Shown in pieces: positions 1,686 through 37,312 of a stretch of 64,000 nucleotides of DNA. The stretch covers positions 186,001 through 250,000 of the forward strand of contig QPGO01000011.1 in the NCBI GenBank assembly GCA_008632985.1. Reading direction: 5' to 3'. Source of the DNA: Psammoneis japonica. Taxonomy: Eukaryota. The position numbers and the translations under genes are program-made. The notes below the pieces were generated by a model. That model had not been told where the DNA came from. It was given only the letters and a program-made list of their open reading frames with translations, and did not search any database. Every line of letters starts with the position of its first letter. Within the stretch, counting starts at the first letter, position 1.

Positions 1686-1890
1686 GCTGAAGATTCATGG
1701 ACAACAGCTTCGCAACAAATGTTGCTAGGAATAGATGCATCCGAACCCACACCTGATCAGGACCTGTCTGGACTCACACAGCTGAAGATTCATGGATGCC
1801 AGCTTCACAACAAAGATCACTGGGAATGGATGAGACAAGTGGCATCCGAACCCACACCTGATCCGGACCTGTCTGGACTCACACAGTTGC
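1686..1890. repeat. About 100-bp imperfect tandem repeat; related segment repeated at about 3830-4075
   Basis: GCTGAAGATTCATGG...CATCCGAACCCACACCTGAT..GGACCTGTCTGGACTCACACAG occurs at 1686-1784 and 1781-1889. A third core sits at about 3831-3878, and 1970-2070 matches 3970-4070. Confidence 0.85.
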
Positions 1891-2249
1891 AGTGAATTGA
1901 AAAACGGGTGAAGATTCATGCCTGGCAGAACTCACCACAGTTGGTGGCACATTCTCAGATGGAAGCACTCGGAGAAGCTGACATGGCTTGCAGACAAGCT
2001 GGCAGTTCTTCAAAGCAATGCTTGGCAGATGGTTCTTTGGTGATCTGCAGAAAGCAGCTCAGATGCTTTGCTTTGGTGTCTGCTTCATCCATTGTGCTGT
2101 GTCACATTCCTGTGCACAACAACTCCAATCCAAAGCAGTTGAAACAAAAATGAATGTCAAAGCAGGCCAGTGCAAAAGAACCCTCCCCGTGCACAGTTCG
2201 TCCATCATTGTTCCAAGTTTTTCCAATTCCGTCCTCTGCATTCTCAGAA

Positions 2250-2620
2250 TTGGGTGGTGAATGAATTTGTCCTGGCAACACAACAACTCCCAGATAGCCC
2301 CAACACAATTCTCCAGGCGACTGGCAAAGTCATCCTCATTCTTTCCAGCAGGGCCGCATGAAAGGCAAAGAGGCAGCATGCCTGCCTTGTTGGGGCTCAA
2401 CAGTGCCGGTTTGCACTTGTCTGGAAAAAATCGACAGACTCAACTTTGCCGCCCAGACAAGCCTTGTGCAATGGGAGGTCCCCACAATTGTCTGCAGCAC
2501 AGAATGACAGACCATCAGGCTCTTTCCACCTGTTGCCACATTCGTCCAGGGCCCGAGCCTCCAATGGAAAAAACATTGGATGGCCTTTGTCAAATGAAGA
2601 GCTGCCATGGGAGACCATGA
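2250..2620 (-). pseudogene. Decayed ankyrin-repeat protein gene fragment
   Basis: ADNCGDLPLHKACLGGKVESVDF and NKAGMLPLCLSC...GAIWELL lie in adjacent frames and match ankyrin G-x-LPLHxAC repeats. Broken by stops and frameshifts. Confidence 0.6.
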
Positions 2621-5529: not shown

Positions 5530-5637
5530 GGCTTGACATGGCTGGAAGATTGATTGAGCAGGCATGAGTGCAATGCCACCATTGGCTTGACATGGCTGGA
5601 AGATTGATTGAGTGGGCATGATTGCAACACCGCCATT
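5530..5637. repeat. 54-bp tandem duplication
   Basis: GGCTTGACATGGCTGGAAGATTGATTGAG... at 5530 and 5584. The copies differ mostly at CA/TG/CG sites. Confidence 0.9.
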
Positions 5638-8369
5638 GCCACTTGCTGGGGCGGGACATTGTTGAACTCCATTGTTGCAAAGATTGGTGTGCCTTTGTCC
5701 AGCTTTGCACTTCCACTGGGGGTGGCATGGTTGGATGGACCATCAATGATCAAAGCTGTCACCCAGTGGCACAACACTTGATCATGAAGAGAGTGCTCAA
5801 TTGAGTCAAAACTGCCTTGGAATGATGACGTCAAATGCTGCTGGGAGGCAGGTGCAAATGTCAACCAGCTGGCACCAGTTGCTCAACAAAGAACTGCCCA
5901 AACAAACACCATGGGAGATGCAGTGCTTCCATCCATGAGCAGGCATTGCTGGGCTTGAGGGCAAATTTCCAGCCACCATCTCAAGCAGCAAGGTGGGTCC
6001 ACCCTGGAAGTGGGGCTGCCACCATCAAACACCACACTGCTGGACAGTGATTGGACAACATTTGAAGGCAAGTCAAAAAGTGGGAGCACAATGCAGAAGA
6101 TTGCTGAGAGGCTGCTGGGTGTGGTGCAGAAGGTTGCTGTTTTAGATGGTTTCTTTCACAAAGAGGTCACTGGCACCAGCAGCAAACTCTGTTGTGAGAT
6201 TGGCAACAGGCACCACTTCTTTGCTCAAGTGTGTCACACAACAAACAAGCAGCACAGGAGAAGTGCACCATTCTGTTGCCCTGTTTGCCATTTCCACAGC
6301 ACCACACCAACAGATGCTCAAAACTCCAGATCTTTGGTTTTGTGCCAAGCACAAACAAGAAAATCCTGTTGTGGCAAGGTGCAGCAGACAACCAACTCTG
6401 GGTGCCATTCTTGAGCTAATTTTGCTGTGGAGCAGCATGTGAGTTGCAAATGGCAACAGCACAGGCTTGTCTGGCAATGCAGCCATGCAAATGGCACCAG
6501 GACTGGCCAAACAAAACTGTTTCAAAAATTCATCCATGACATCTGGTGTGCTGGCAAAACAAAGAAGACCTCAACCTCAAGAAAGCAAATGTGGGCCATT
6601 GGCACTGCCACCCTGCAAATCTGGAGTGCTGGTTGAGAAGAGAGCACAACAAGTGAGCAGGGGCAGAAGCACAAAAAACTCCAGACAGTTCATTGCAGCA
6701 CCCAGTTGTGCCAAGGAGGAACAATGCGCGAGCTGAAAGCAGCCTGCTTTCATTGCCTTGAGAAAGGCTTTCTTAAATCAACAGTTCATGGCCAACATGT
6801 CTCCTCTCTCATGAGCCACATGAAGCTGGTTGCAAAATGTCCTTTGACAGCTTGCTGTGGCAGAGCGGGTTTTTTTTGTGTGGCTGGCTTGGCGCCAGTG
6901 GTGGCACCACAAACGTGGGTGCAAAGCACAACGACTCTCAACCACCGCAGTTTGTGTCCATTCTGGCTGTGTTCGTTGCTGGTGCAAGTGGTTCATGGCA
7001 GACCTGAATGCCAAGCATGCAAAAAAAAAAACCCATTGGCGCTCAGCAGGCGCCCCTGCAAGGGGGGACAGGGACAACGGGGCACAGAGCCAGCAAAAGG
7101 CAAAGACCTTGAAGCATCAGCAGTGTGAGTGTGCCAACCTCAGTGGCAGCTGGGGTGCCAACAAGAAATGGCACAGGTTTTTGACTTGTTTTTGCTTGTG
7201 TGAGTTGTCCTGCTCTTTGCAAATCTCAGATGCAAGCTGGGGTGCCCCCCCCCCCCCCCTCCCAAACAGCACTGGGGCAGCCTGGGGGCACTGGTTTGTC
7301 ACATGCTTTGTGAGAAGCCATCCCTCTGATGGAAATGTGCTCAATGAGCTCAAGTGCCACACAGCTTTCCTCCTGTTGCCAAGGTGTCAGAGCCCAAGAT
7401 TTGCTGCCAGGAGCAGTTTGATGTGTGAACGGTGCGAACCCATGTGAAGAAAACAGTCGCACTGCAGTGTGCACTCGAGAGCACGTACGGTACCGTAGAG
7501 AGAGGCGCAAAGATGAATAAATTTTAAATATATAAAACATTCATGTTCTTTTATTTGGAAATATGTTAAGAATCTACAGTGATGTGCGTCTGCAAAGATC
7601 CGACGACTAACCAACGCGCGAACACGCCACACAACAACAAGCATCAAAGAACGAGCGGCTTCACCATGACGCTCGCCGCTCGTATTTATTTGGAAGATTC
7701 GTCATGCCAATACCGGTTCTGACATTTTTGAAAATATCTGGTCCCACTGGAACAAGTTGACGAAACCTGCCAGGCACCAAGAGCACACCAGTCGTGGAAG
7801 AATGAGGACTTTCGGCTCCGTGGATTTTACGTGTTTCTGGTACACGCGTGCAATCCGATGCTGGGATTTCGTTCGCTCTCGATTTGCTCATAATTCTGAC
7901 AATCAACTCAAACTACACGGCAGCGAAATGGGAGAGTTGGTTGTGTTTCTCTTTTGACCATGGCGCTCGTTGCATGGCCATGGGCGTTCTGCGTGCTGCC
8001 GGCTTTGTCGTTGCAGAGTAAGGTACGTGTGTTCTTGTCGTGATTGTGTATCGTGTATCGTGATCGTGTTGCTCCTTTTTGTTTTGTATTTCATCCACTC
8101 ACCTCGCTCTCGCCTTCCTAAACACAGAGACAGAATTATCATTTCCCGTGGTTGTGGGCAAGAAGCGGATACGTGTGACGGAACCATGAGACACTTGTTT
8201 CTATAGGTTGCACGGCGGTCTGTTTTTTTCAAGACGAGGCGATGTACTGATTGTGGTTTGGGATTGAAGTCACCAAGGAGGACACTTTGAAAAGTGCAGC
8301 AGCAATGCGAGGCTACCCATTAGGACTGAGCAGACGTGGTACTCGTTCTCCCAACAACGTTGGATCAAG

Positions 8370-15456: not shown

Positions 15457-15699
15457 TGTCGTAGACTACACGATTACATCTAACGAGTGGGCGATAGGAT
15501 GCAGGCTACTCGTATGCTACCTTTGCGATGAGAAACAGGTACTGTAAGACGACGCCATTTGAAGTCGGACGTCTCCATCTCATAACGGTAGTACGTCGCC
15601 CGGAGATCGAAGCACATGGGTTATGAGTTTGTGTGGTCACTGCCGTCTGCCGGTGCACAGCTTGCGGAATGTGGCATGCCTCAGCCGTGTGGCATCTTG

Positions 15700-18600
15700 T
15701 AACTTAGAGCAGCACTCCTTGCAACTGTCGGCTCTGCTGCTGTTGACAATCCCAAGTGTGCCACATGCCAACATGGTCGAATGACTTGTCATCCGACCGG
15801 AGCTGCGTGAGAACTTCCAAGGTTCCTGCAAGTCCGGGTCAAGAAGCTCTCAAGGTTGACAGCGTTCTTTGTCCTGGACAACTGGTTGCCATGGACAAGC
15901 ATGCACCCTCTGTTCGAGGTTGTTTGTTCAAATCTTGTGGCAAGATGAAAGAAGCAGACAAGTGCAGTGGCAGAACTGTTTTTGTTGACATTGCCTCTGG
16001 CAAGGTGTCGCAGCACACACCCCATCAAATTTCGTCTGGTGCTTGCAATGCTGTCAAGAGCAAAAAGGCTTTCGAGAAGGAGGCCACTTCTGCAGGCATT
16101 GTGATTCAAGCCTGTCAATTGGATGATGGCATCTTTGTGAGTGAAAAATTTGCTGAGGAACTTGAACAGGAAAGTCGCAGGGCAGGAAGCTTGCTGGCGC
16201 GTTGTTGGCGCACTTCACCACACCGCCACAGAGTGCAGCCAGGCCACGGAGCAGGCAACTCGTGCTGTTGCCAAAAGAGCACAAACTGTGATGTTTCATG
16301 CTGCAGTTTGATGGCTGGATGCAGCAGAGGGATGGATTTGTGGCCAATGGCGATGAGCCATTCTGTCCAATTGTGGAGCTCAAGAAGAACCCCGCGAGAA
16401 TGGATTTTTGATGAATTGTGCCCCAAAGAAGTCTTCTCAGGAGTGAAAGTTTTTTCAAGTTCAACCTCACAAACTTGGCTGTTTGAGGATGCCCAACCTG
16501 TGTGTTGGATCCAACATTGCAAGATGGCAAGAAAATGCCATGTTGGAAGGCCAGAAGCTGAAAAAGGCCAACTTGTGGGTTGCTCGCCACTCCAACATGC
16601 AAGTGACACATCCTTGGATTGACTCAGAAGCTCAAGAATGGCTCAATGTCAACTCAATTTCCTGCAGTTTGTGACAATTGGTTTGAGATGGTTCACTCAG
16701 ACATTCGGATGACAAGCACAGGATGCCACAGACAGGACTTCAAGATCTTGTGCAGAGACTGCGATGGAGAGGCTTGCAACTGTCACCATCATTGGATGAT
16801 TGGCTTGCTGCCAACCAAAGAGCTGCACAGAAAAGACATGTCCAACAAGAGCACTGACTTGACAGAACAGAGGGAGACATCACCTGGATCATCCAGGACA
16901 CCCTCTCCCCCCCCCCCCCAAGATGATCTTCTGCACAAAGGAGGTTCTTGAGCACTCCAAGATCAAGTGATGCTCCACTGGAGTCTCCATTGTCTCCACA
17001 TTTTGTCCACAAAAAAGTTGCTCCTCCAAGTGTTTGGTCCCCTTTGACTCCAGCTGACTCACCTGAGGCTCAAGAGGGAGATCCCAAAGTTCCAAGGTCT
17101 CCTGAGCCACCTTTGGTTGCTGACAATGATGGCCACCATTTCCCCGCCTGAAGCTTCACATGCTCTGACCCCAATGTGGGTGTGCTCTGACAGAGCAGCT
17201 CATCCCAAGGATCATTGTGTCTTTGAAGGGAAGGATCAACATGGCTGCAATGGACATGCCTGGAAGGGCGTGGCCTCTTTCATTTTGAACTTGTCACATT
17301 GGCTCAAAAGTGGCTGCAGGATGGCAGAATTTGTGAAGATTGACATGACTCATGCAATGTTTGGCAACCTTGATGGCAAAGGTGTCAATGCTGCATGTCC
17401 GTCATCTTCTCATTTGTTGAACTTTTTGTGAGCAAGAAGACCCTACAATCCTGATGCTTGTTTGTGTCATGAAGCAATGGCAGGACCACATGTGCGGAAG
17501 AGTTCAAGAAAGCCATGCATTCTGAGGTCAAATGACTCAATGCTGAGGTGCAACTCATTCACTCCGGTGGTGCTGTGTGATTCAGCACCAACTGTGGCTC
17601 AAATGTTTTGCTTGGTGCTTGGGCATTCAAGATCAAGAGACTCCCTGATGGATGTCTCAAGAAGTTCAAGGCATGCTTCTGTGTGTGAGGGAACCATCAA
17701 CAAGAGGGAGCTGATTTCTTTGTTGTGCATGCCCCGGAAGTTCAGCAGAGTGTGGCTTGGCTTGCTCACGAGTTTGTCAGACATGCGTGGGTTGCACTCA
17801 TCAAGTTGATTGCACCCTTGCTTTTGCCCAAGCAGGCATTGAGAGGATGCATGTGTTGCTTTTGCACAAGCTCTTCTAGATGGAACATGAAGGAGACTGC
17901 ATGTTGAAGCTCAACAAGAGCTTGCACGGGTTGCATCAAGCCATGGCTGCTCCCAGATTCCAACATCTGTCCAAGGGTGGTTTGGAAAAGTGAAGAGTGT
18001 GCACTGCATTGTGGTGAGGGTGATCCTGGCTCGTTTGCTGGTGAAGACAGTGCTTGTCTTGTGTGTGTTGATGGCTGTTTGTTCCTTGTGAAGGATCTCA
18101 CATGAAAATTGGCAACACGTTGTGGGTCAACTCAAGGTGAGTGGCTGCAAACTTGATGTCAAGGATGACACCAACAGCTTTCTCAGTGTCAACATCAACA
18201 GGGATGATGATTCTGGGACCACCCATCTCACTCAAAAAGGCCTCATCAAGAAGATTGTTGCTGCTGCAAATGAGAGGTTGTCGCACTCCAGCCACTCCAG
18301 CTGCTCTGCTTCCTTGGCCACTGGTGCTGCTGGTCCTGCCAGTGTCACTGGCATGATGCTCTGCTTGGCCTCCAGTGTCAGGTCAAGATGGCCTCAAGGT
18401 CACGCCTGAGCCAGGAGAAAGGCAATCCTTTTCTGCAATCAGTTGCCCAATGGGAACAAGGATGACTTGTCCCAACATGCTGCATTGAAAGTTAAGAAAG
18501 GAAAGAAGTGGCCAATGAATCTGTGTGTGTGGGATGCTTCTTTCCATTGAGCTCCCAACAGATCACTGCATGTGGATTGCATCCCCAAAGGCTCATCACA

Positions 18601-18800
18601 CAGCGGTTGATTCCAAAACTGCATCCATTCAGAGTTGCAACCATTTAGGTCATCGTCAAATTTTATGAGTTCATGCTGTCTACCCATGCTGACAATCGAA
18701 GTTGCACATCTTCAAAACACAGGCTTCTCGAGCGCAAAGCAGGTGACATGAGGCCAAGCAGTGGGGATGAACCAAAGCCTTGCCACCAATGGTTCGAAAA
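15700..18800 (+). mobile_element. Decayed Ty1/copia (CoDi-like) LTR retrotransposon: integrase-RT remnant
   Basis: Integrase PGQLVAMD...TVFVDIASG...KKAFEKEA...DDGIF. RT WAFKIKR.PDG..KKFKA.FCVRG, QVDC.LAFAQA, KSLHGLHQA and LVCVDG. Many stops and frameshifts. Homologous to 27900-30400. Confidence 0.9.
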
Positions 18801-19022
18801 CCCTGCGACCAAGCCGGAGATTGGGACAGCCAGCAAGCTAAAAAAATGATTCAAATGCTGCATTTTATCCCAGTTTACTTGTAGCATAGCGTAGAAGAGA
18901 AGAAGACGTCACTGCAACCTACAAACGGCCGGCAAGGCCCCGCAATCTATCATAGCGCCTTGACAAAGTACAACAGATAACAAAACATTTCCAATTGCTA
19001 AATTCTCTGTTTTAGATCAAGT

Positions 19023-20303
19023 TCACAGTTCCTCCTTTCCACTCTCTCCATCAGTCGTCGTAGCTTTTTGCATCTTGCCATATAAGATTGTCAGATTGAT
19101 TCGTCGATTCTCGTATCCCGGCTTGAATCTAAAATCGTCTGTTTTATGAAAGAGCGCCGAGTCAAAAAGAACTGCCCTATTCTGCTTGTAAGGCACAGTG
19201 ATATTTGAAAAGTTGGAAGGCCTGAGAAGCTCCTCAAGATGCTCTCCCAATTTGTTGTATTTCCGTTGGTCCCACGATGCAGGAGGCTTGACAGTGTAAA
19301 CAACCAGACCACCACTGTCTTTGTCCAGATTGGCACTGTTAGGAGTTAGCCAAATGTTGACATTAACGGCAGCTTCGTCGGCATGGATACCGATGCCTGA
19401 ATACCTTTCGTCGTACTTGTAGGCCCAAAGATACCTCAATGGGTGTTTCTCCATGATTCGCGGAAGAGCTTTGTGAAGCTCATATGCGACAGCAATCAAG
19501 AGCCGATCATATAAACCATCATCAATGTATGCCCCAACGTAACCACCCTCATTGGTAGTTTTCGTTTCGTACCAGACAGTACTCTCAAGCATTATTTGTC
19601 GCACACGCTCTAAAGCCAGGGGTGATAGTAAATTATCAATATAAACAATACCTGGATGGTAAAGTCCAGAATCGTCTGTTTCTTCGCCATGCCACTGTCG
19701 CTCGATTCTTGAAAGATCTAGATTCGCATTCAACAAGCTGACAGGATTGCCGTTCACATCAGTTATATTCTCACTAAAGTCAGTCACATGAAGTGCCTTG
19801 TTGTACAGGTCTCCAATACCTGTATTGTAGTCCTTTTGTTGGAAGAAATAGAATCCCCGAGCAGCTTCGAACTTCTCGTCAGAAGGTAGCGTATCCAGCA
19901 CTCGCTTATAAACAGGCACAACTACGGATTTGAAGAATTCCGCTTCTGTTTTGTTGGACGAGAATAAGTGTTCTGAAAGGTATTCTGCTTGCTCGAGGTC
20001 ATGCTTGAGTTTGTATCTAGACGTATAAGTCAGACCAGCCCCTTTTTGGATGATCGAGGTACTGAGCTTACTTCTTTTTACTTGCGATGCATCTGTATTT
20101 CGCTCTGTTTGTTTAAAGTATCCTGACATGACGCGGTGCAGTCCATCAATGTCGTACTTGGCCGAAAAGTGCTCAATCACATCAAAGTTAGACATGGGTT
20201 CCTTCATCGAAGAAGCAGCAGGGCTGATGGCCAGGCTAGTAGTAGCAGCACCACAGCGCTCTGATAAAACGACGAGTTCATCATCATCATCATCTTTGGA
20301 CAT
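19023..20303 (-). CDS. 2OG-Fe(II) oxygenase-like conserved protein
   Basis: WAYKYD..GIGIHADEAAVNVNIWLTP..ANLD..SGGLVVY...NRAVLFDSALFHKTD...RRINLT gives an HxD...H...R facial-triad layout. The 5' end may include an upstream exon. Confidence 0.75.
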   Translation of the reverse strand: MSKDDDDDELVVLSERCGAATTSLAISPAASSMKEPMSNFDVIEHFSAKYDIDGLHRVMSGYFKQTERNTDASQVKRSKLSTSIIQKGAGLTYTSRYKLKHDLEQAEYLSEHLFSSNKTEAEFFKSVVVPVYKRVLDTLPSDEKFEAARGFYFFQQKDYNTGIGDLYNKALHVTDFSENITDVNGNPVSLLNANLDLSRIERQWHGEETDDSGLYHPGIVYIDNLLSPLALERVRQIMLESTVWYETKTTNEGGYVGAYIDDGLYDRLLIAVAYELHKALPRIMEKHPLRYLWAYKYDERYSGIGIHADEAAVNVNIWLTPNSANLDKDSGGLVVYTVKPPASWDQRKYNKLGEHLEELLRPSNFSNITVPYKQNRAVLFDSALFHKTDDFRFKPGYENRRINLTILYGKMQKATTTDGESGKEEL

Positions 20304-20689
20304 TCAACTGAATACGTGCCATAATCCATCACCATGACTTCCTCATTCCCCGTTTCCCGAAAACACCGACCGCGGAGATGAGACAATACCTTCGGGTTCG
20401 CCAGGCTAGGCACTGAGTATCCTACAGGCACCAGAGGGGTTCCTTGTACGTACCGGTAGGGCTACCTCTGGGTTCACCAGGCACTGAGTTGAACATCTAG
20501 ATCGCGGGCTACGACTCAACATTTAACATTGGCTCGTGGTTCAGTCGCGGGTCAAGCACTTTCCTTTACAACAACATGAGTCGAGAATTGATGGAGGAAT
20601 TCTCTGGACAGCCACATTGTCTGGGTTCGGATTGGAAAAGAACTTCCGAAACAATCAATTGTCATGCTTCTCATTGAATCACAGGTGAA

Positions 20690-23600
20690 TTGTCAACAAT
20701 TGTTGGGGTTCTGACAACTCTTCTTGTTTTGCACTTGCTCCGATCCGACCCTTCGAAACAATTGTGCGAGATCTTCCTGATCCTCACTCTGACATCGTCT
20801 CATAAAAAGTTGTTCCTTCAAAACTGTGTGAAAACTCTCAGCAAAGTCTGCAATTCACTTGTGTCCTGTCATGGCCTTTTTAGAGAATTCAAGCATTCAG
20901 CCATTTTTTTTTGCTTCGTCATGCTGCTCTGACGGTTGGTGGGTGGGTGTGGTTGAGCTGTTGTCCACAGCATGCAGTCAAATCACCCTCCTCAAGTTGA
21001 CGCTTTGCCTTTTGATGTGGAGGCCTTCTTCAAGGCACTTCCAGAGTGCCGTGAAGATGCTTGCATGATGTTGCGTTCGCAAAACCCGGCAGATGGGGTG
21101 CCAACCCCTCGAGCCGCAGCGTGTGTGTTGACTCTGGCGAGTGAGGCAGTGACACTCTTACCTCGCTCTCTCACTTGTTGTCCACTGTGTGTCCTGGCAG
21201 AGTGGGGGCCAGTGTTGGAGCAGCAGTTAAGATCTGTGGTGCCCCAAGAGCTGCTTGTGGAGCTCGGTCACACACACTGTCTCATTGGGCCGAATTCCGC
21301 CCCGGATGGTTCATTTCTGCAGGAAATGGATCAAACTCGGGACACCACCAGACCCCGTCCCTCCCTTCCAAAGACTTGGGTGGACCAATTTCTTCCTCTG
21401 TGGCCATGACCACAACCAATGTGAGTGACCCCATCCGCTTTGCAGTGGGGCAGTGGAAGTTCGTCATGGACACTTGGGCCGCCATCAGTCAAGTGGCGTC
21501 ATTGCATGCTTCTCCGTCCATCTCTCCCCCGGACAAGGTCCAAGAAGAAGGTTTGGTTCCTCTGGAAATTCAGCCTCAACCCAGTTTCATTGCTTCCCAT
21601 TGATTTGACCCTGAAGAATCGTCGCGTGGTGGACCCAGCGACATTCCAGACCCCTTTCGACCTTCGGGCTCGGACAACCCCTCTCCTGCTCCTGCTCCTG
21701 CTCCTGTGGACCACACTGTTTCATGCCTTGAAGCAAACTGCAAATGCTTGATGTGTCAATCTTGCAATGTGAAGGCTCATCTTCAGGAAGAGGTTTAGAA
21801 CCATGCCCGCTTGCTTCACCGAGTCACCGCTTTAGAGTCCGGTCCCCTCAATTTTTGTGCTGATCTTCACCCTCATGTCAATCGTCTCCAAGACACCCAG
21901 GCACGTGCCATTGAGGATCTCACCCAGCTCCAGAATCAGGTGTTGAGCCCTGCTGGTTCCCTCCATGCCCTCAAGAATGAGGTTTCTGCCCTTGAGAGCC
22001 GTGTCACCATTGGACGTGGAGTTCCTGCTCATGGGGCAAGCTTCAACTGCCCGGAAGAAATCTGTCCCTGGTTGTGCCCAGTTTCAAACTCTGTGACAAT
22101 CTTTCATGATGCTGTGTCACTGTTGCATTCCATTGGAGCCACAACCTCTTCACACAAGAGTGCTTTGGTGATGATGAAAGCACAATGAGATGTGAAGATC
22201 TCATGTGACATGGAAGCTCGGGTCATCACTTCTTTCTGGACGAGTCCACCTTGGATCTCATTCAACACTTCTGTGGAAGGAGATGCGGCAGAGGATTGTC
22301 AACGGCTTTCCTCTCATCTTCAGAAGTGCTCCAACTGGCATGCAGATGATGGTGCATCTGGTGCATCTCAATGCATGCTTCGTGGGGCTCTGGAGGTCCA
22401 GAATCGGGTGACATTCCTTGCCCACCAAACCACCACCAATCCTCATGTTCTTTGGTTGAGTCAGGGCATGCTTGCAGACTCATTGAACTTCATGCAGCGG
22501 CTCACATCCTTTGCTGATTGCTGGATCATTGATCTCAAGACTGGCAGTTGCTTTGGTGATGCAGAAGCTTGGGAGGTCATCGTCTGCTCCATTGAGAAAA
22601 TCTTTGAAGACATGAGAGACACCCATTCTTTGATTCAGGACGTCTCTGATTCAGACAAGTCCATCATGGTTTGTGGGTTTGTTGAAGAGTCATGAGGTCA
22701 TGTGTGATTGTCTTGCACATGATTTCAAGAATCACCCTTCAATCAATGGGACATTGCTTCAGAAGATTGTGAATGCAAGTCCTGCCGCCAGTCTGCAATC
22801 CAGGTTGTCAGCCGCAGAGAAGACTGCCAACGCTGATCACGCATCCTTGGCCAATCTCAAGTCTCGGGTGTCGGCTTTGGATTCCAAATCTAAGTGAGCG
22901 GCTCCTGGTGATCCCCCAGGCTTGCCTTCCCCCCTCTCTTCCTCCATTCATCCTTTGTCGAAGGCATCATCACCTCTTGCAAAGGATCATGGACAAGAAC
23001 CAGACATTGCACATTTGACAGGACCTCTTGGCAGATTTGTTCAATTGAGGCAGGGTCTGTGTCTTGTCCAGTTCTTCTTGGATGTGGGCAATCGCGGTGC
23101 ACCTGGTGGGTGTCTCCACGATCAAGCATCTCCCTCTTACCTTGGAAGCAACGAAAAATCTGAAGCAGCTTTGTCAGAAGGGTCTCTTGAATTTTTCAAC
23201 AAGATCCATCATTGGGCATCAACACTTGGCCAAGCTCAACTTCGATTTAGCTCTTTTCAATGTCCCTTGGATTTCCAATGCCCCTCACCACCCATTGATC
23301 TCTTTTCCAGCCCCACTGCAGGTCCATGTCACCCTGTCTGAGATTTGCAACATCTTGAAACCCTTGGGGCATTCTCAACTTTGGTCCCACTCCATGTGCC
23401 ATTGCACCTCAGGGGGAGTTACCTCGTGTTCTATCCCTGTTGCTTGGGTTGGAGAGGGTGGTGGTCAAGTGCAACTCAGGGGAGTGTGTGACATCCTCAC
23501 AGGCCCATGGGTTCTTTCGCAGACAGGGCAGCCCCTTTGTCTTTTGGTCTGACCCGTTGCAGGTTGGAATCTGCACCCCCGGTCTGGTCCACTTCCTTGG

Positions 23601-24980
23601 ACATGCCATGCCCCTGGCCTTTGCCACCCTCACATCTTCCGATTCGTGCTCCTTTGGTGTTTTTTAAGGGCCAATTCTCCACTCAGCTTCTTGCTTCATC
23701 AGAACGAGCAAACATCTTCCCCCCAGACTCTTCTGGTGGAATGGCGAATTTGATTTGGAATTGGAATTTGGGTTGGGTGGTTCCCTTGTGAATCTGTGTT
23801 GAGTTTCTCATGTGGGCATCCTCTTGGCTTTCTGCTCATGTCTCTCCCATCTGCTCTAGCTCCAGCATCTTCACATCCACCGGTGTGACGAGCTCTCCCA
23901 AGGTGATGACGAATGACCTTACACTTCAGGTCCTCCACTTGAAAGCTGGCCAATGGACAGGGGACACTGCTCTTTATCGTGTCTCCCATTTCAGTTGGCT
24001 GTGGGAACCAAGTTCTGCAAGCAATGTGTCCACCGCGACCAAAGCAGACAAGGCCAGAATTGACACTTCCCTGTGGGTGGTTGGTGGTCCTGGAATTGAA
24101 TTAGAACATGCCAAAGAGATCATCCGGCCCCGGTTTCTCTTGGGTCATTGGAAACAAAATGTCCTTTGTGACCTTCAACATTTTCTTGTAACTTCCCGGT
24201 CCTGGGAGTCACCTTCGGAATTCCAAAAAGATTTGGACATGGCTTGTGATGTGTTTCCTTGAATCTCAAATGCCACTTGGTGGGAGTGGGCTTGTGGAAG
24301 TCGCATTTTCTGGTGGTGGTGGACCCCCATTTGGAGAAAAGAAGCCAGGGATGGTGCCCCAGTGTTGCACAAGTCGTTCTCTGAACTTCTGCTCCATTTT
24401 TTGCTTTTCCTGAGGGTGATGACAACATCCAGGTGGTTTGGAGTGACACTGAAAATGGCATCAACCCGCTTTGTGTGCCCCAAAGTTTTTCATGCCGGTC
24501 CCTGACTCGTCATTTTGACGGCTCCCCCATGGCGCCTGCATGGCGGATGTCGATTGTGGGGAGATGTTCAACAACTGGTGCATGCATCCCTTGGAACATC
24601 AGCGTGCTGGTGTTTGCCTTCCAGAATGGTTGGCCTCTGCTCTGAACACGTCCTCTCATTGCTGCCGTTGGGATTGTCTCCTTTTTGGCTGGAGTCCTTC
24701 CCCTCTCCCAGCTGTTCAGATGGTGCAACGTGCTCTTGAACTGGTGAAGGGTGACCGTTGTGATGTCTCTCACCCACTTCACTTTGCTCGTGTTGCTCTC
24801 AATCTTCCTGTGTCTTCTTTGCATGACCCTGGTCAACCGCATCTTACCAAATGCCAGTCTGACAGGCAAATTGCTGCAGAGGTCCTTTTCTTCTCGAATG
24901 ATGGACGCCCTTTTGGCCCTGACAAGGAATTGGCTGCATCTGCCACCCATGCAACCTCCTCAGGGATTCAACATCTGGCC
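20690..24980 (+). mobile_element. Decayed DIRS/Ngaro-like (tyrosine-recombinase class) retrotransposon, truncated within RT
   Basis: ADVDCGEMFNNW...AGV, RWDCLLFGWSPSP, LNLP.S..HDP and FFSNDGR(=YVDDGR) RT motifs at 24540-24980. WEWACGSRIFWW lies upstream, and a gag-like coiled-coil ORF lies at 21800-22900. Family assignment is from recalled motifs, not from a search. Confidence 0.6.
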
Positions 24981-27900
24981 CCAATTTGTTTGGGGGTGAC
25001 AGATCAAATGACTCTTTCAATGAGTCTGAGGAAGAAACTCAAGGGTGCTTCATCTTGTGCTCTCAAGTTGGTGTGGCATTGTTGACAACATCACTTGGGC
25101 TCTGGTGGTCCACGAGTTGTTGATCCACATGCCATGGCATGTGACCCATGTTGTCAATGCCCGACATCATTCTGTCATTCTGTGATGATTGCATCATGCT
25201 GTTAGAAAGGATTGGGGTTAAAGATTGACACCAACAAGGGCTGCAAGGTGACCCTCATCAGTCAGACCAATTCTTTTGGAAACAAGCACCTTCTCATGAG
25301 TGGCACGGATTCAGCACTCTGCATCCAGAGGAGAGACATTCAAGAACAGGGAAGGGCACCTCAAGAGTTGAATCTTCTGACAAATTGCAGTTTGTTGGAC
25401 CTCCAAGAAGTTCAAGATCATGTTCAAGACTTGCTCGTGATGGGCAACCAATGTGATCATCAGAACAGCACTCTGCATCCAGAGGAGAGACATTCAAGAA
25501 CAGGGAAAGGCACCTCAAGAGTTGAATCTTCTGACAAATTGCAGTTTGTTGGACCTCCAAGAAGTTCAAGATCATGTTCAAGACTTGCTCGTGATGGGCA
25601 ACCAATGTGATCATCAGAACTTGCTGTGGTCTGCAGAGTTCTTTTGCAACTCAACTGGTGTTGCTCATTGCTCAACATGGTGACACCCAGAAGTGCAGCA
25701 CAATGGACCTGTGCATGGGCTGATTGTCTGCAAGCTCACTGCAACTGGTGAGCTGCACTCATCTGTTGTGTTGGCTCTGCATGTGGTGGTGGACAAGTTC
25801 AAGGCCGTTAAACTCAAGGAAGAACCCGGTGAGAATGCAAAGAACTGTGCTGCAGAGGCAGTTGAGCCATGCAGGCATCTTGAAGGTCATCTCAAAAACT
25901 GACCAAAGATGCTGCTTTGACACTTTGCAGCAGCCTTGCAATATCAACTGCCGAGCCATTCTGGACTCAGCTCATGATGCTCTTCAATGAAGTCAACATG
26001 GATCCAACAAAGTGCGCGCACAATGATCTCATTGTGTGTGCGAACAAGTCACACACCAGCTTGGTGAACCATGAAGAATGGACATCATTGAATCAAGGCC
26101 AACTGGCTCTGCTGCTTTTCTAAATTGTGCTGATGATCATGCCACTTGCTGCAACTGTGGCCAGCAAGGTCACATCCATCCCAACTGCCCCATTGGCAGT
26201 TGAGGAGGATGCAGAGGATGTGGCAGACATGGTGGAACAAGAGGAGATGGGGGCAGTGGTGGTCATTGCAATGGTTGGTGCTGCCAGCAACAGAGCCAGA
26301 ATGGCGGTGATCCCCACCCTCAAGGTGATCAGAGGGACCCTTGCAGGATTCCTCCAAGGCATGGAGAATCTCTCACACTTGAGTTCCCAACAGTGTTGCC
26401 AGCATTGGTGTGACAGGTGTGGCTGTTGGGCCAGCCACACTGCTGTGAATCTCAAGCTCCAGAGGGAGAGAAGATGCACCAATGCCAAAAATGCAAACGC
26501 TGCTGCTCAAAAATGATCCAAGGATTGCACTTCCAATGCCAACGAGCATCATGTTGCTTGGGATCAAGAATCTGTGCAATGTTCTGGTGCTGTTGAAGAC
26601 TCCCAAGAATGCACTCTCCAGCACCCCAGAATGCTTTGAATCAGATCTGCATGGGTTGTGCCTTGGTGCATGACTGGTCAAACCAGTGGGTCAGTTGATT
26701 GTTGGTTTGCCACTCGCAAAGGGCCCCACCACTTTCTTCAAAGCAATCATTGGAGGGAGATCAACGACAAACAAAATTCAAGTCAAGTCTTGTTGTGAGT
26801 GCACCCAGAAGCCATGCACATTTTGCCAGCACACATGACATCCATGTGAACTTTTGCAATGTTCTGTGCTCTGTTGCACAATTCACACACATTCCTGCAG
26901 ATGAACTGCCCAATCCTGAAGCATTGTTAAAAAAATGACCAGCCACCATTCCAGAAGACTCAACGGACCATCTTTGGCTCAACATTCTGTCATCAATTTG
27001 TTCTCAGGTGTTGGCGGTCATTTGATGTTTGTTGGGATTCATCAAGTGTTGTGGCCACAGTCTTTCAAGAAATGTGTCACGTGACTTTTCAAGAAGTCAA
27101 GCACCTGCATGATGACATGCCAGACTTTGACTTTCATTGTTGTCATCCTTGATGTGATGAATTGGCTCAAGAGATCACAAACTGAAACTCTGATCTTCCG
27201 GCCAAAATTGAGCTCAGTGATGTGCATGCTTGCACGCCATTTTGTGAACATCAATTTGCAGGAACAGATTGACCATCTGCTGACATCATTCTCATCCCCC
27301 TCACAACAAGCAATCAAGATCTCACTTGATTCTGGAGTGAACACAACCTCTGCTTTTGAAAAAGAAGATTTCATCCCAGGGACTTGCAAATCCCTTGACA
27401 AATCAGAAGCACTTTTTCTTTCATTGCTGGGTGTCAGAGGTCATGTTGATGTCAAGGGTGTGGGTGTTGTTGAGTGGATGGCATTTGACAACACCAGACA
27501 TGAACAAAACATCCATGCCAAGAAGTGCTTTTGCACTCTGACCTCTCCCATGAAGTTGTTGAGTGTTGCCTGTTGTGGACATGACAAGAATGGGAGTGGT
27601 GTGGGCTGCAGGCTTGATGAATGTTGATGTTTCCAAGGACCATGTTTTTTTCTGTTGACGTGGTGGTGGAATGATTGCTGCACCTCATCATGAAACAAGC
27701 AGGCTCCCCATTGTGATCAGCAGGAATCCATTTTCAGCAGTGTGCCAGAAGAAATGCATCCATGCATGCAAGGCCAATGAGCTCAACCAAAATTTGCCAA
27801 CAAAAAAGCAAAAAGAGATTGTTGCTGTGGCACATTTGCCTTGGTCATCTTGGCTTTGACCACATCAAGTGGTTGGCCAGGAAAGGGTGCCTTGGACATG

Positions 27901-30900
27901 CTGCAAGAACTGTCAGCTCTGCTGCTGTTGACAATCCCAAGTGTGATGATGAAAGCCAACATGGTCAAATGACTTCAGTTGTGAGGAGAACTTCCAAGGT
28001 TTCAACTTGGAGTCAAACTCTCAAGGTTGACATTGTTCTTCATCCTGGACAATTGGTTGCCACAGATCAATGTGCACCCTTTGTTTGAGGTCATCTGTTC
28101 AAATCTTGTGGCAAGATGAAAGAAGCAGACAAGTGTGGTGGCAGAACTGTTTTTGTTGACATTGCCTCTGGCAAGGTGTGAACATGTCATCAAGTTTTGT
28201 CCGGTGCTTTCAAGGCCGTCAAGAGCAAAATGGCTTTCACAAGGGAGGCTGCTTCTGCAAGCATTCCAATTTATTCCTGTCAATCAGATGATGGCATCTT
28301 TGTGAGCAAAGAACTTGATGAGGAACTCAACAAGCAGGAGGTCAGGGCAGGGAGCTTGCTGGTGTTGGCACACATTGCCAGAGCACCATTGCTGAGCAGG
28401 AAATTTGTGCTGTTGTCAAAAAGCACAAACTGTGGTGTTTCATGCTGCAGTTCAACAATGGCCGGATGCAGCAGGGATGAATTTGTGGCCAATGGTCATG
28501 AGTCATTCTGGCATCCAATTGTGGAACTCAACCCCATGAGATGAGTGGATTTTGGTGGATTGTGTCTCAAAGAAGTCTTTGCAGGAGGGGTGAAAGCTTT
28601 GCCAAGTTTGACCCTCACAAGTTTGGCTGTTTGGGGATGCCCAACCTGCATGTTGGATCTGACATTGCAAGATGGCAAGAAAGTGCCACACTGGAAGGCC
28701 CAAAGTCAAAAAGACCAGTTTGTGGGTTGTTTGCCACTCCCCATGCAAGTGATGTCAGATCAATTGGGAACCTCAAGAGTGGCTCAATGTTGCCTCAATC
28801 CCATGTTCTTTGCAACAATTGGTTCAGATGGTTCATTCAGACAATGAGCACTGAGCACAGGCCACCACATGACTGGTTGCATCGGATGATTGGCTTGCTG
28901 CTAAGAGTTGCATGAAAGATGCATGCAGCAGGAAGAGCTGTGGAGGCAATGGGGATCATCAGCATCAGCGCCAGTGGAACAGAGAAGGCATCACCTGGAT
29001 TGTCCAGGACACCTTCTTCTTCTCCAAGACAATCTTCTGTGCAAAGGAGGTTGTTTTTTTGGCACTCCAAGAGCAAGCAATGTTCAAGAGAGAGATCCCA
29101 GAGTTCCAAGGTCTCTTCAACCACCTTTGGTTGCTGACAGTGATGGAGACATTTCCCTGGAGCTCAAGATGCTCTGACTCTAACTCAGACATGTGCTCTG
29201 GCAGAATGGCTTGTCCTCCAGACATTGTGGCTGTGAAGGGAAGGATCAACATGGCTGCAATGGACATGCCTTGAAGGGTGTGTCCTTTTTCATTTTGAAT
29301 TTGTGATGTTGATGTTGGTTCAGAAGTGTCTGCAGGACAGCAGAATTTGTGAAGACACATGCGATGTTTGCTGACCTCCATGGTGAGGGTGTCAATGCTG
29401 CACATTCGCTGTCGGCACATTTGTTGGACTCTTTTGTGTGAGCAAGAAGACTCATGATCCTGATGCTCCTTTGTGTCATGAAGCAATGGTGGGACCATGT
29501 GTGGAACAACTCAAGAAAGCCATGCATTTCGATGTCAACAATTTGATGAGACACAACATGGTCATTCCAAGGCTGTGCAACTTGGCACCATCTGATGCAA
29601 ATGTTTTGCCTGGCACTTGTTGGGCACTCAAGATCAAGAGACACTCTGGCAGGTGTCTAAAAAGTTCAAAGCATGCTGCTGTGTGCAAGGGACCATCAAC
29701 AAGAGGGAGCTGATTTCTTTGAGACTCATGCTCCTGCAGCCCAGCAGAGTGTTTGGTTGCTCATGAATCTGTCAAATCTGTGCAGATTGGCATCTTGTCA
29801 AGTCAATCACACCCTTGCTTCTGCTCAAGCAGGCATTGAAGAAGATGCACATGTTGAACTGCCCAAGGTCTTTGAGATGGAGCATGAAGGGGAAGGCGTG
29901 TTGAAGCTCAACAAGAGCTTGCATGGGTTGCATCAAGCCGCAACTCTGCTTGATTTTTCCAACATCTGTCCAAGGGTCTGGAAGGGTGTGGATTGCATTC
30001 TGGTGAATGTGATCCTTGCTTGTTTGTTTTTGTGAAGGATCTCACAAAAATCGACAACATTGTGAGTCAACTCAAGGCAAGTGGCTGTGAACTTGATGTT
30101 GAGGATGACGCGAATGGTTTTTCTCAGTGTCAACATCAACAGGGATGACAATGCCAGGGCCACTCATCTCACTGAGAAAGGCCTCATCAAGAAGATTGTT
30201 GCTGCCATGAATGTGGAGGATTGTTGCGTGAAGGCTGCCCTGACCAGCTCCGCTCCCTTGGCAGCCACTGGCGCTGAGGACAGTCCTGAATGGGTCAAAT
30301 CGTGGAGCTGCACAAGCACTGCAGAAGCAGTGCTCTGCTTGGCCTCCAGTGCAAGGCCTGATGTTGCAGACTGTCAGGTGTCTCCAAGGCATGAAGGATG
30401 GTGGCATGATTTTTGCCATCTCCGATGACTCAAGGTTGGGCCATTGTTTGGCGCAGATTTTGCTGGACTTGGAGCTGTGAAGATCCTCAAGATCCAGCAT
30501 GTGTCAAGAGTTGGTCTGGTCACTTGTTGACCATTGGTGGCAACCCATTGATTTGAGCTTCCAAGCTGCAGACTGAGATTGCATCATCGACACTCGAGGT
30601 GAAGCACATTGCTTTGTCTTGGGCGATGTGCTGGTTGTGCCAACCACCACACAAAGAGCTCGTCACAAGGCACAAGGAGGCATTGCATCTTCAATGAATT
30701 TTGATTGGGACAATGAAATGCTGTTCCACTCTTCCATTTTTGAGGATGACAATGGTGCTTTGACATTGGCCACGATGCCAGACATGACTCCGTGTGTGAA
30801 ACATGTCCCGATCAAATGTTGCTTCTTCAAGCCCCACATTTCAAAGAGCCTGACTCTGTGAGATTGTTGTTGACACACTCAGAAGATTGCTGGTGAAGAG

Positions 30901-31200
30901 CAATGGGTGGATGCATTGACCAAGGGTTTGGTGCAGGATAAGTTTGAGTGTTTGTGCAAGCTGGTTGCAGGGTGGTGGGATGCGGCGGACTCTTTTCGTG
31001 TTTGCATTCATTCGCATTTGAGTGTGTGTGTTGCACATGAAAAATGTGGTGATGGTGGCGATCAGGCATGATGAATGGGGTTGTTGCATCTCTGCATGTG
31101 GTTTCGCATCATCGCATTTGGGTTTTGTGTTTTGGCACGAACTTTATTTTGAAATTTCAACGGCGATCTTGCGGTCGACGTGTTCTCGAGAGGGAGAGCG
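24980..31200 (+). mobile_element. Decayed near-full-length Ty1/copia (CoDi-like) element: gag-PR-IN-RT-RNaseH
   Basis: gag KLKEEPGENA, knuckle WCDRCGCW.SH, protease LDSG, LLLWHICLGH pre-integrase, integrase VFVDIASG/DDGIF, RT ETHAP/KSLHGL, RNaseH IFEDDNGAL..KHVPIK..DALTKGL. Purine tract GAGAGGGAGAG at about 31187. Confidence 0.9.
25312..25620. repeat. 154-bp near-perfect tandem duplication inside the copia gag
   Basis: CAGCACTCTGCATCCAGAGG... at 25312 and 25466. One visible mismatch (GGGAAGGG versus GGGAAAGG). Confidence 0.95.
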
Positions 31201-33533: not shown

Positions 33534-33959
33534 TTCTTATCAAAAGTATTCTGTTGAACGGCGCAAGAAAAAAGGATTAAGCAGAGTTGATAGTCAGATA
33601 GGTTTTCTTCAACAGAAGAAATAACCGCGATTTCAAGGAAGAGGCTTTGCGATTCTTGGGTCGTGCGTGGAGCGTCGTGGGTCGTGGGTCGTGGGTAGGC
33701 CTTTGGATAGTGGGGCGCGGGGGGGGAGGATGCGCCCGCTTTTCCCTGTCACCCATCGGGTGACCACTGCGGGGGTGCCGTCTTTTTTTCGAAAATGCCC
33801 CGCTGTCTAAAGGCCTCTAGTAGTAGCAGTAGTCGTGGGTCGGCGCATATCGCGCGAGTTCCCTTTCGTGGCGAGAACTGGTGGAGGACTCTTGGCAGCA
33901 AAGTGCGGCGCCCTGAACAACAGCAGCAAACAATTACGTCGACTGCATCTCCAACCACC

Positions 33960-36480
33960 TTGCAGTGTGGCCACTGATGACTTGGAGTGACAAGACAGCT
34001 GCGGTGGACTCCCAGCACAGATGCATGCAGTGCCTGCCAAAAAGCTTCGAGGGACACCCACTCTCCATCGAGGCTTGGGCGACTTTCTCAAGAGAGTGAC
34101 TTTCTTGAGAGCCCCCAACTCAGCACTTCTGTGGATTGCTCAAATGACCTTAATGCACCAGCAAAGGGAGCTGGCAATCTGTGGGCCAAAGTCCTTGGAA
34201 AATCAACAAAGTGCAGCCTGCATCCTTTGGCTTGGCCCGGGATCAGGGAGAAAAAGAGCGAGGGTTGGCGTGCCAGGGCAGGGCGGGCACAGCTTTAAGA
34301 AGCACGCACCACTGCACATGCCAAAGAGTTTGACAGCAGCTCATCTGTGGCCCATGCACAACAAGCTTGTGGCAGCTGGGGTCTCCTGCACATGTTTTTG
34401 ATGGGGCAGGGCATCCAGCAAAATGTGCACCCTGTGCAGCCAGGGCGTGCGAAAAAGGCAGAAGCTGAGGTGCTGACCCTGACAAAAGTGCATGCAAAAA
34501 AAGGCAAAGTGGGTGACATCCTCATTGTCAAGGTCAACCATCACAAATCATTGCAAATGGAAAAAGATCTGTGCCACCCTTCTCCACAAATTGCTGCTTG
34601 TGCAGTGGTCATGAATGAAGCGGGCTCTCTTGGCGCAGAAGAGCCTGCTTCAAACATGCACTCCACTCAAGGCCAAGCACTGGCTCATCCAAGTGGAAGC
34701 AAAAGAGTTTGCATCAGTGGCATCATTGTGGAGGATGGTGCTGCTGCTGTCATTCTGAGAGCTGAGGTTGCTTGCTTTGATGTGAGAGCAAGGTCTGGCA
34801 TGTGGAAAGCATGCAAAAGAGAGGCTTGTCACCCACCAGCATTCCTGCTTCAGCTTGTGTGACTTCTGAGCACTGGGCATCAGCAGCAAATCTGATGCTG
34901 GCAAATGCAAGGCACGAGGTTTTCAAAAATCTTCAACAGCATCCAAGGCTTGCCAGCGAACTTCCAAGGCTTGTGCGAGTGAAGGTTGGCACATTCTGCC
35001 AAAGAGAGGCAACAGCAGGAGCTGCTCATGCAGCTGTTTGAGGGGCCTCAACCTCTCACAGCAGGCTGCAAAGAGAACTTTGACAAGGCAGCAGCACCAC
35101 AATTTTGCTGCCTGGCTCTTGAAAGAAAAAACAGCAGTTTTGCTCCACTTGTGTCCACTGGGACTGGAGTGAAAGACAGTGAGACACTCTTGGCCAGGTT
35201 GTTGAGGTGTGATGTTTTTTGGCTTTGACCCTTTTGACTTGCTCCTGATGCTGTCACAGATTTTTGCATGGTGTGGCAGTTTGAAGGGCCGACCATTTTG
35301 AGTGGTGCTCACACAGAATTTTTTTTGCTCTCCTGTGCACAGCACACATGTGAGAATGAGCAATTTGTTGGATAAACTCCCACTCTGCATGAATGGCCCA
35401 ATTTCAATGCACCCCCATTTGAATTCTGTGAGGGCAAACTGACACATCACAGTCATGTCTGGCACTTGCTTGACTTGGATGCCCTGTTGCTAGAGATTGG
35501 TCAGAGCTAGAAACAGCTGTGCAAAAAATGTCACATCAGCAAACAAAAATGCTTCAGAAAGAGCCAGACAAGATCCCGTTGCAAACTGGGTGACATGGGC
35601 ACCAGCTCACAAGGTTGCAGCACCAGTTGGCAGGTGAGGTTGCAGCTGTTGCTGTGATTGTGTGTCGCACAACTTGGCTCACAATGTGCCGCCAACCTTG
35701 GCTTTGAGAAATTCTGCCAAAAAAGGGCACAACAACCACGCCTCTCAAACAAGCCCCCCTGCTCTGACAAGGCAGCCATTTGCTCATTGAAGCAGCAGAG
35801 CTTTGTTGATCTGGCCTGCAAAGTGTGTGCTGTCAGCATGGAAAGACCTGCAACACAAATGCCCTTGTTGTCACCAAGCTGAAGCTTGTCACATTGTTGG
35901 ACAGCTCATGGTTGCAAACTTGAGATGTGTGAAAGCTGTCAAAACATGGAAAACAGCACTGTGATTGCTTGAACCCTTTGATGCCAAGCCCCACTCATTT
36001 CATTGGTGGGATTTTGTGAAGTGTGAAGGTGCTGACAGACTTTTCCAGAGGCAATTCTCCAGGTCAAGTGCTGTGTGGTTTGGTGGAGCCAGGTCACTTG
36101 CTGTCCAGCAAGAAGATCCCATTAAGGCTAATTTGTCATTTCAAAGCAGGTGCTCTCTGTGCTTTGCCAAATGGCTTTTGCATCACACAGTCTGTGAAGA
36201 CTCTCAAATGGCTCAAGTTTTGCTGATGGAACAACTCTGCACCACTCTGAAAGGACAAAAAGCAAATCGCTCTTCATACAAAGCATACAACAAGGCTTGG
36301 TCTTTGCAGATGACCAATGCAACTTTCTTTGTCAACTCCTGCACCTTTCAGCTTTTCTCTTTTTTCCATCATCTCAATTCTTTCATTGAACCATTCATCG
36401 CCACTTTGCAAAATTGGGCTCACACTTTGAAACCTCCTCTGCGCCGCTGCTGGATTCTTCAGAGGAATCTTTTTGCTTCG
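33960..36480. other. TpA/CpG-depleted hypermutated block between the two Rab11 copies (unidentified decayed coding sequence)
   Basis: Near absence of TA and CG, TG/CA excess. Protein-like + strand fragments (e.g. 35965-36400) could not be assigned to a family. Confidence 0.8.
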
Positions 36481-36661
36481 GTCACAACGTCACATCACAC
36501 AATCGACTGTACACAACACTGCAAAAATAAAAAGGAAAGGAAATCAAACAGGCAAGTCTAATTTTCATTGAAATAGTATAGGCTCCCCAAGACTCCAACG
36601 TTTGTCTATGAAATCGTCCATAAGGAACTTGGCAAAGAGCGACAAGTGTCTGCAGCAGAAG

Positions 36662-37312
<651 letters not shown>

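Follow-up and report, generated by a model that had tools for sequence, protein, structure and literature searches.

Near-complete loss of TpA to TpG and CpA in copia fragments and other blocks of a Psammoneis japonica contig

A stretch of 64,000 nucleotides from the diatom Psammoneis japonica (contig QPGO01000011.1 of assembly GCA_008632985.1, positions 186,001 to 250,000 of the forward strand; hereafter the window, with positions counted from its first letter) carries five sharply bounded blocks in which the dinucleotide TA has almost disappeared and CG is strongly depleted, with TG and CA increased. Two pieces within these blocks, copy 1 and copy 2, are remains of Ty1/copia retrotransposons, and in both of them the conserved tyrosine codons have become cysteine or histidine codons. 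The pattern is probably the product of a hypermutation acting on DNA, from TpA to TpG/CpA and confined to mobile DNA, to which the decay of methylated CpG was added.

Direction and dinucleotide specificity of the changes

The five blocks total 25,866 bp, 40% of the window, and hold 59 TA and 309 CG, compared to 1538 TA and 2095 CG in the other 37,597 bp. Expressed per kb, TA amounted to 2.3 in the blocks and 40.9 in the rest, and CG to 11.9 and 55.7 (a 4.7-fold loss), while TG rose to 115.7 from 70.3 and CA to 106.1 from 72.8, the loss of TA and CG (82 per kb) being balanced by the gain of TG and CA (79 per kb). The frequencies of AA (76.2 versus 80.8 per kb), TT (79.0 versus 74.5), AT, and the remaining dinucleotides altered little, G+C content was equal inside and outside the blocks, and TA alone was depleted among the dinucleotides containing A/T. 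The edge is step-like: the bin 15501-16000 holds 11 TA, none of them beyond 15705, as the next TA is at 17444, and copia homology starts at 15724.

The direction of change was read from codons of the two copies at which at least five relatives aligned and at least 60% of them agreed on the residue. None of the 14 conserved Tyr positions across both copies was kept; eight read Cys (TGY) and six His (CAY), and the five other single-step neighbors of TAY were never seen. Six intact relatives kept 73 of 83 conserved Tyr (Fisher P = 7e-11 against 0/14 in the copies). Conserved Arg was kept at 7 of 27 positions, every time as AGA/AGG, and was changed to TGN at 12 (seven Cys, three Trp, and two stops) and to CAN at four (two His and two Gln), the remainder being three Lys and one Ala; CGA became a TGA stop at 16559, 17686, and 28086. 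Control residues were kept far more often, namely, Phe at 27/35, Trp at 14/17, Cys at 10/11, Lys at 22/26, Gly at 41/54, and Pro at 40/50 positions. The direction of change is TA to TG/CA and CG to TG/CA. The first-pass annotation, made from the letters of the window, had proposed this polarity on the grounds that these Tyr are conserved in copia proteins; it is borne out by 14/14 Tyr positions and, for CG, by the 16/27 conserved Arg at which CGN became TGN/CAN, and the intact relatives carry Tyr or Tyr/Phe at the codons in question rather than Cys/His.

The individual codons on which that annotation relied were compared with the residues of relatives placed on the window by tblastn. The strings encoding QVDC in copy 1 and QVNH in copy 2 were located exactly where they had been quoted (Table 1), and their origin from an ancestral QVDY agrees with the relatives: the third residue was D in 6/6 of them at 17808 (GAT, preceded by GTT) and in 14/14 at 29805 (AAT, preceded by GTC), and the fourth was Y in four and F in two at 17811 (TGC, n = 6) and F in nine and Y in five at 29808 (CAC, n = 14). 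KSLYGL reads KSLHGL at both 17925 (CAC) and 29922 (CAT), where Y was present in 5/5 and 12/13 relatives; YVDD reads CVDG at 18064 (TGT-GTT-GAT-GGC), with YVDD in both aligning relatives (n = 2 only); and ETYAP reads ETHAP at 29727 (CAT, Y in 11/13 relatives), whose copy 1 homologue at 17728 is also CAT (Y in 13/16). As had been claimed, an integrase Tyr was lost as His at 15900 (CAT) and as Cys at 28071 (TGT), the relatives having Y in 82 and F in 49 of 144 cases. A further reciprocal site, 15921 TGT versus 28092 CAT, falls where 135/147 relatives have R.

Self-comparison of the window aligned 15723-18264 with 27908-30205 at ~75% identity, and the global alignment of 15723-18470 with 27908-30420 gave 1870 identical columns, 378 transitions, 189 transversions, and 387 gap columns. 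TA was practically absent from both aligned sequences; TG faced TG at 206 places, CA faced CA at 160, and the two were reciprocal at 74 (39 + 35). Reciprocal TG/CA accounted for 74 of the 119 adjacent double-transition differences, with 5-11 in each other class (AC/GT 8), and is therefore not explained by general divergence. Strand runs over the 74 sites numbered 45, compared to 37.9 ± 4.3 in shuffles, with no strand tracts, and Cys and His outcomes alternate within one copy. The action in the two copies was largely independent.

The copies had been described as resolving the same ancestral TA and CG in opposite directions. Each reciprocal site was polarized by whether TA or CG restores the majority residue of the relatives, which favored CG at 18 sites and TA at five, with 17 ties and 34 sites without informative relatives. 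An ancestral TA was thus seen directly at a few sites, including 17811/29808 and 15900/28071, so that this part of the description holds there, but most polarized sites favor CG. Most TA loss appears as concordant or unpaired change, not as reciprocal change.

The copia copies and the separability of TpA and CpG loss

A HMMER search with the 291-residue frame at 15747-16619 returned 423 relatives at E ≤ 0.001 (best 7.5e-17), and among 150 of these 19 were polyproteins of at least 1200 residues. With the 19 polyproteins as tblastn queries, integrase and reverse transcriptase (RT) were matched over 15724-18096 in copy 1, and integrase, RT, and a C-terminal RNase H end over 27698-31026 in copy 2, in copia order. 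With 134 copia polyproteins, the matches in copy 1 covered 15724-18385, a protease-like match was added at 27328-27561, and no match was found in the window outside the two copies. Query residues rose from integrase (15724-16876) to RT (17482-18385) in copy 1, and from integrase (27698-28876) through RT (29387-30383) to the C-terminal end (30410-31026) in copy 2. Pfam recognized RVT_2 at 29661-30032 of copy 2 (33.3 bits, cut-off 31.6); gag_pre-integrs at 27717-28085 of the same copy scored 26.9 bits, below the 28.4 cut-off, and no family was recognized in the open reading frames (ORFs) of copy 1. A gag zinc knuckle, CX2CX4HX4C, was found by eye, without a Pfam hit, at 26150-26188 (CNCGQQGHIHPNC), upstream of the protease-like match of copy 2.

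Copy 1 is truncated at both ends, the block of copy 2 ends ~120 bp past the polyprotein end, and both copies carry TGA stops and frameshifts. Self-blastn found no direct repeat flanking either copy; the absence of long terminal repeats (LTRs) fits decayed fragments and does not speak against a copia origin. The two sequences are dead Ty1/copia retrotransposon fragments in a diatom nuclear genome. All named relatives of the GRASP-domain protein encoded in the window are from diatoms, with 45-75% identity across a portion of its length, and Cyclotella, Conticribra, Thalassiosira, Attheya, Nitzschia, and Stephanodiscus are among the genera. These names, together with the Fragilaria and Mayamaea origin of related polyproteins, would be indirect support for a place among the diatom copia lineages (CoDi).

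The TpA and CpG halves of the pattern are separable. From 20567 to 25000, TA was lost, yet 6-20 CG per 500 bp persisted, compared to 1-5 from 25001 to 30000 in copy 2. In addition, a 2061-residue open copia polyprotein from an ENA metagenome contig of 8476 bp (P0082), whose named relatives come from Fragilaria and Mayamaea, contains a single Tyr. None of its 22 conserved Tyr was kept (12 Cys, eight His, one Trp, and one Phe), whereas 29/35 conserved Arg were. Two close relatives of P0082 kept 19/21 and 20/21 conserved Tyr, none of its 119 listed relatives fell below 0.3% Tyr, and the median of intact relatives was 2.6-2.8%. This protein would represent a second, TpA-only instance outside the P. 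japonica genome. TpA loss removes TAA and TAG and makes no in-frame stop, which explains why P0082 has an open frame and why the blocks have long ORFs in each of the six frames; the stops in the window copies arise from CGA to TGA.

Less than 1% Tyr was also found in the relatives P0015, P0065, P0075, P0087, P0105, and P0128, with Tyr to Cys/His changes in P0065 and P0015. One metagenome locus (L001, contig of 1230 bp; the single locus from 93 pattern matches, obtained with a single-protein query) encodes a distant copia integrase relative (37% identity) and is CG-poor (rho 0.19) with ordinary TA (rho 0.47), that is, CpG decay without TpA loss.

Table 1. Positions of the depleted blocks, the copia copies, and associated features in the window
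Feature	Position	Strand	Description
Block A	1732..7486	.	7 TA, 51 CG in 5755 bp
Block B (copy 1)	15705..18493	+	Truncated Ty1/copia fragment, integrase to RT; 3 TA, 37 CG in 2789 bp
Copy 1 site	17802-17816	+	CAAGTTGATTGCACC (QVDCT)
Block C	20567-31145		Left part and copy 2
Block C, left part	20567..25261	.	TA nearly gone, CG less depleted than in copy 2
Copy 2	25262..31145	+	Copia internal region: gag knuckle, protease-like, integrase, RT, RNase H end; left end inferred from the end of the 4557-bp contig
Tandem duplication	25312..25620 (25312-25466 / 25466-25620)	+	155 bp, 99% identical, inside copy 2
Copy 2 site	29799-29813	+	CAAGTCAATCACACC (QVNHT)
Block D	33935..36510	.	Between two copies of the 0.9-kb unmutated duplicate
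Block E	54945..59111	.	9 TA, 28 CG in 4167 bp

The flanking genes, encoding an RRM protein, LCAT-like, GRASP, kinase, TGT, and AP-4 epsilon proteins, are of ordinary composition. A Pfam scan of 150 of the 151 ORFs of at least 85 aa (1519-1773 on the minus strand was left out) gave, apart from the two copia hits, only three weak hits below cut-off, including Ank_4 in 2400-2756. Read-through translations with stops as X revealed no Pfam family in 20567-27700 (three plus-strand frames) or in block E (six frames), and tblastx between blocks, with the pair of block B and copy 2 set aside, found internal repeats alone and no resemblance of the blocks to each other. Block A contains a direct repeat of ~300 bp (75% identity, 2 kb apart, ~1781-2073 and ~3771-4069), which could represent the LTRs of a small decayed element. 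The tandem duplication in copy 2 is younger than the hypermutation. Block D is bracketed by a direct duplicate of ~0.9 kb (32713-33656 and 36488-37421, also 33850-34013 and 37617-37769; 91-95% identical) that keeps normal TA and CG (29 TA and 49 CG shared); either duplication alone is no trigger or this duplicate is younger than the process.

Contigs assembled separately from a public run, which may be the window's own source sample, carry the blocks, for example, a contig of 4557 bp over 20706-25262 with six differences. Between the window and 284 contigs at least 80% alike, 106-119 places per transition type and 13-25 per transversion type differed; these differences are mostly transitions, which shows the copia family to be multi-copy. 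The 4557-bp contig ends where copy 2 starts and has a depth of 30, compared to 46-56 for contigs of the flanking genes; the stretch 20706-25262 may occur in a single copy or on only one of the haplotypes. A TA-free but CG-rich tract at 43091-43430 (339 bp with 38 CG) reaches into the start of the protein-kinase ORF 43417-44532; in character it is the reverse of the blocks, to which it is unrelated. The stretch of lowest G+C content, 44001-46000 (0.347), contains an assembly gap of 537 N at 45298-45834.

Proposed mechanism and alternatives

Two context-specific transition processes would have acted on chromosomal double-stranded DNA, in the copia copies and in three or four other mobile or foreign blocks. 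The first, highly efficient, would convert TpA to TpG/CpA and remove ~95% of TA, striking either strand at each site independently, with one hit ending the status of the site as a substrate. The second would be a decay of CpG to TpG/CpA, as expected of cytosine-methylated transposons, removing ~80% of CG, and both would end within tens of bases of the element edge. The first process is presumably enzymatic and aimed at silenced mobile DNA, and its likeliest chemistry would be deamination of the adenine in 5'-TA-3' to inosine, read as G. Since TpA loss makes no stops and leaves Cys or His in place of every Tyr, the elements would die by missense with six frames open.

The CG half resembles methyl-CpG decay, with CG>TG/CA and Arg CGN replaced by Cys/Trp/stop or His/Gln. 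Diatom transposons are cytosine-methylated via DNMT5a, according to the text excerpted from PMC9998398, and the CG loss in the blocks would be decay of the sort expected for them. In contrast, the TA loss, which is the stronger effect in the window, is left unexplained by deamination of 5-methylcytosine.

TpA-directed hypermutation of foreign DNA has so far been reported once, in a 2026 preprint on the chlorarachniophyte Bigelowiella natans (bioRxiv 10.64898/2026.01.13.699255). According to its main text, 231 of 302 nuclear single-nucleotide mutations in mutation-accumulation lines fell in two integrated viral regions, 230 of these 231 were A>G or T>C, all of the 230 on TpA, the rate in the viral regions was ~6e-7 per site per generation, ~1000-fold higher than for the genome, and the signature was present in only some lines (11/15). 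The same text describes TpA-poor, CpA+TpG-rich clusters elsewhere in the genome and an enrichment of reverse-transcriptase and DDE domains in TpA-poor coding sequences, and its authors suggest that an ADAT2-like DNA adenine deaminase is responsible.

The window agrees with B. natans in that TpA alone among the A/T-containing dinucleotides was hit, yielding TpG or CpA by strand, in that both strands were affected (TG and CA both up; 8 Cys versus 6 His), and in its confinement to foreign or mobile DNA, here to five blocks, two pieces of which are copia. It differs in its host, a diatom as opposed to a chlorarachniophyte (Rhizaria), and in that the rate was measured directly there, whereas the end state alone is seen here. 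The viral insert of B. natans still has 3.3% TpA (rho 0.45), compared to rho 0.04 in the window blocks, and the window adds CpG decay, a component not described in the main text of the preprint, where "CpG" occurs 0 times. The signature in the window is the same as in B. natans, but at saturation and on diatom retrotransposons. A term search found "diatom" and "stramenopile" absent from that main text, and "TpA," "dinucleotide," and "deamination" were all absent from the searched text of the CoDi-defining paper (PMC2806351). Literature searches found neither TpA loss nor hypermutation described for diatom transposons; most subscription journals were outside their coverage, and an earlier report is possible.

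The few surviving TA differ in their flanking bases. In the blocks (n = 64, the 59 plus five edge TA), 38 survivors are YTAR and five RTAY, compared to 280 YTAR and 463 RTAY among the 1538 TA outside (chi-square P = 2.5e-15); the YTAR contexts among the survivors are TTAA, TTAG/CTAA, and CTAG, and no GTAC, GTAT, or GTAG remains. The YTAR survivors point to a flanking preference, or to later mutations, and their abundance suggests that the base after A is preferred in the order C>T>G>A. Survivors are denser in one patch, with 11 TA at 23138-24189. At 18 Tyr sites (15900-18064 and 28071-30817), the outcome followed the preceding base: C-TAY became Cys in 6/6, A-TAY Cys in 2/2, G-TAY His in 5/6, and T-TAY His in 3/4 cases, suggesting that flanking bases choose the strand hit; because homologous pairs are not independent, this trend is just a hint. 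A tetranucleotide mass balance for the strand chosen at each flank was rejected, as losses and gains per context were unbalanced and the estimates fell outside 0-1. Polarized Tyr and Arg sites gave 20 sense-strand and 10 antisense outcomes (P = 0.10). TG exceeded CA in block B (331 versus 278, P = 0.035) and block C (1221 versus 1036, P = 1e-4) and was balanced with it in the three other blocks (A, D, and E). The plus strand is the sense strand of both copia copies, and the TG excess in B and C may be linked to transcription or else ancestral.

Several points weigh against TpA hypermutation of mobile DNA as set out here. The window presents the end state only. The ancestors of the blocks were assumed to have had a background-like composition, and blocks A, D, and E and 20567-25261 are without a credible family, so that they can be called mobile DNA only presumptively. 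The 23 polarized reciprocal sites comprise 18 CG and only 5 TA; some TA may already have been lost before the two copies separated or, alternatively, flanking bases may bias strand choice and make independent copies agree. The flank rules are inconsistent, as the T-preceded Tyr that became His in 3/4 cases contradict the rule derived from YTAR. P0082 is known from its protein alone, so its retained Arg could be AGR.

The main alternative, considered unlikely, is that the same outcome was produced by thymine-centered or passive chemistry with no dedicated adenine deaminase and perhaps no defense. The thymine of TpA in silenced chromatin would be oxidized, for instance by an enzyme of the TET/JBP type that yields 5-hydroxymethyluracil, and would mispair with G, or a heterochromatin-specific repair or polymerase error would give T>C. 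In dinoflagellates, 5-hydroxymethyluracil is concentrated in TpA; sequence alone does not distinguish A>G on a given strand from T>C on its complement, and the domain edges shared by TpA and CpG loss would fit a chromatin-linked by-product. However, the near-total specificity for a single dinucleotide and the abruptness of the edges have the look of an enzyme, unchanged AA/TT exclude a WA signature of the polymerase-eta type, and the restriction of the B. natans process to 11/15 lines in the preprint's main text argues for regulation.

Context-specific hypermutation of retroelements is also known from APOBEC3 and ADAR in animals, where it is deaminase-driven and used as defense. Their substrates are single-stranded cDNA or RNA, and the resulting G>A or A>G tracts are strand-asymmetric, unlike the window, where both strands are hit and the outcomes interleaved; ADAR is, to our knowledge, animal-specific. 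That copia transcripts were A-to-I edited by an ADAR- or ADAT-like enzyme and then reverse transcribed, the copies being inserted already mutated, is very unlikely. Edges matching the element would follow naturally from such a route, and the preference of these enzymes for U before the edited A is described in the B. natans preprint's main text (bioRxiv 10.64898/2026.01.13.699255). Editing of sense RNA, however, yields TA>TG only; the joint rise of TG and CA on interleaved strands excludes both sense-RNA editing before reverse transcription and APOBEC-like action on a single cDNA strand. Tyr gave both Cys and His in one copy, and the reciprocal sites lack strand tracts. Once all its Tyr were replaced, the YVDD to CVDG change among them, an element would be unable to drive more rounds itself, the same pattern is found in blocks without retroelement trace, and the target in B. 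natans is, by the preprint's main text, a single-copy viral insert mutating in place.

A fungal-type repeat-induced point mutation (RIP) or another DNMT4/RID-driven process behind the whole pattern is harder still to credit. As in the ascomycetes, dinucleotide-specific transitions at the DNA level have killed repeats and left sharp compositional blocks, but the changes run the other way: under RIP, CpA/TpG become TpA and stop codons arise, whereas the window loses TpA and stop codons and gains TpG/CpA, and cytosine deamination is unable to give T>C or A>G. RIP mutates duplicated DNA of several hundred bp, and the 0.9-kb duplicate beside block D (91-95% identity) is unmutated, although possibly younger than the process. 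RIP is refuted for the TpA half; since many diatoms encode a DNMT4 related to fungal RID, as stated in the excerpted text of PMC9998398, such an enzyme could contribute the CG>TG/CA half.

The absence of any hypermutation, with native TA/CG avoidance (UpA/CpG selection in RNA or codon usage) or an assembly or sequencing artifact in its place, scarcely deserves credence: although UpA and CpG suppression is described as common in RNA viruses and retroelements in the portions of literature consulted, the changes here destroy conserved residues and motifs (14/14 Tyr; TGA stops), the copies are frameshifted and truncated, intact relatives have ordinary Tyr, and separately built contigs carry the same sequence.

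Implications for diatoms and their mobile DNA

It may be, although this is less likely than not, that diatoms and chlorarachniophytes share a dedicated DNA-editing immunity, in which integrated mobile or viral DNA is converted from TpA to TpG/CpA on double-stranded DNA to exhaustion. Such a "reverse RIP" would kill by missense without stops, independently of cytosine methylation, through a natural TpA-specific DNA adenine deaminase that prefers RTAY over YTAR.

For genome annotation, the blocks lose recognizable domains and are open in six frames, leading to false genes and hidden transposons. They can be found with a simple filter, either for Tyr-free polyproteins or for rho(TA) close to zero together with a high rho(TG+CA).

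The diatom case would show that the process is not limited to one species and suggests a widespread system; it would also show that transposons are acted on besides viral inserts and that the process is able to reach completion. Genome engineers would have an interest in a natural enzyme able to edit A in double-stranded DNA, and, as diatoms include genetically tractable models, such an enzyme becomes a practical target.

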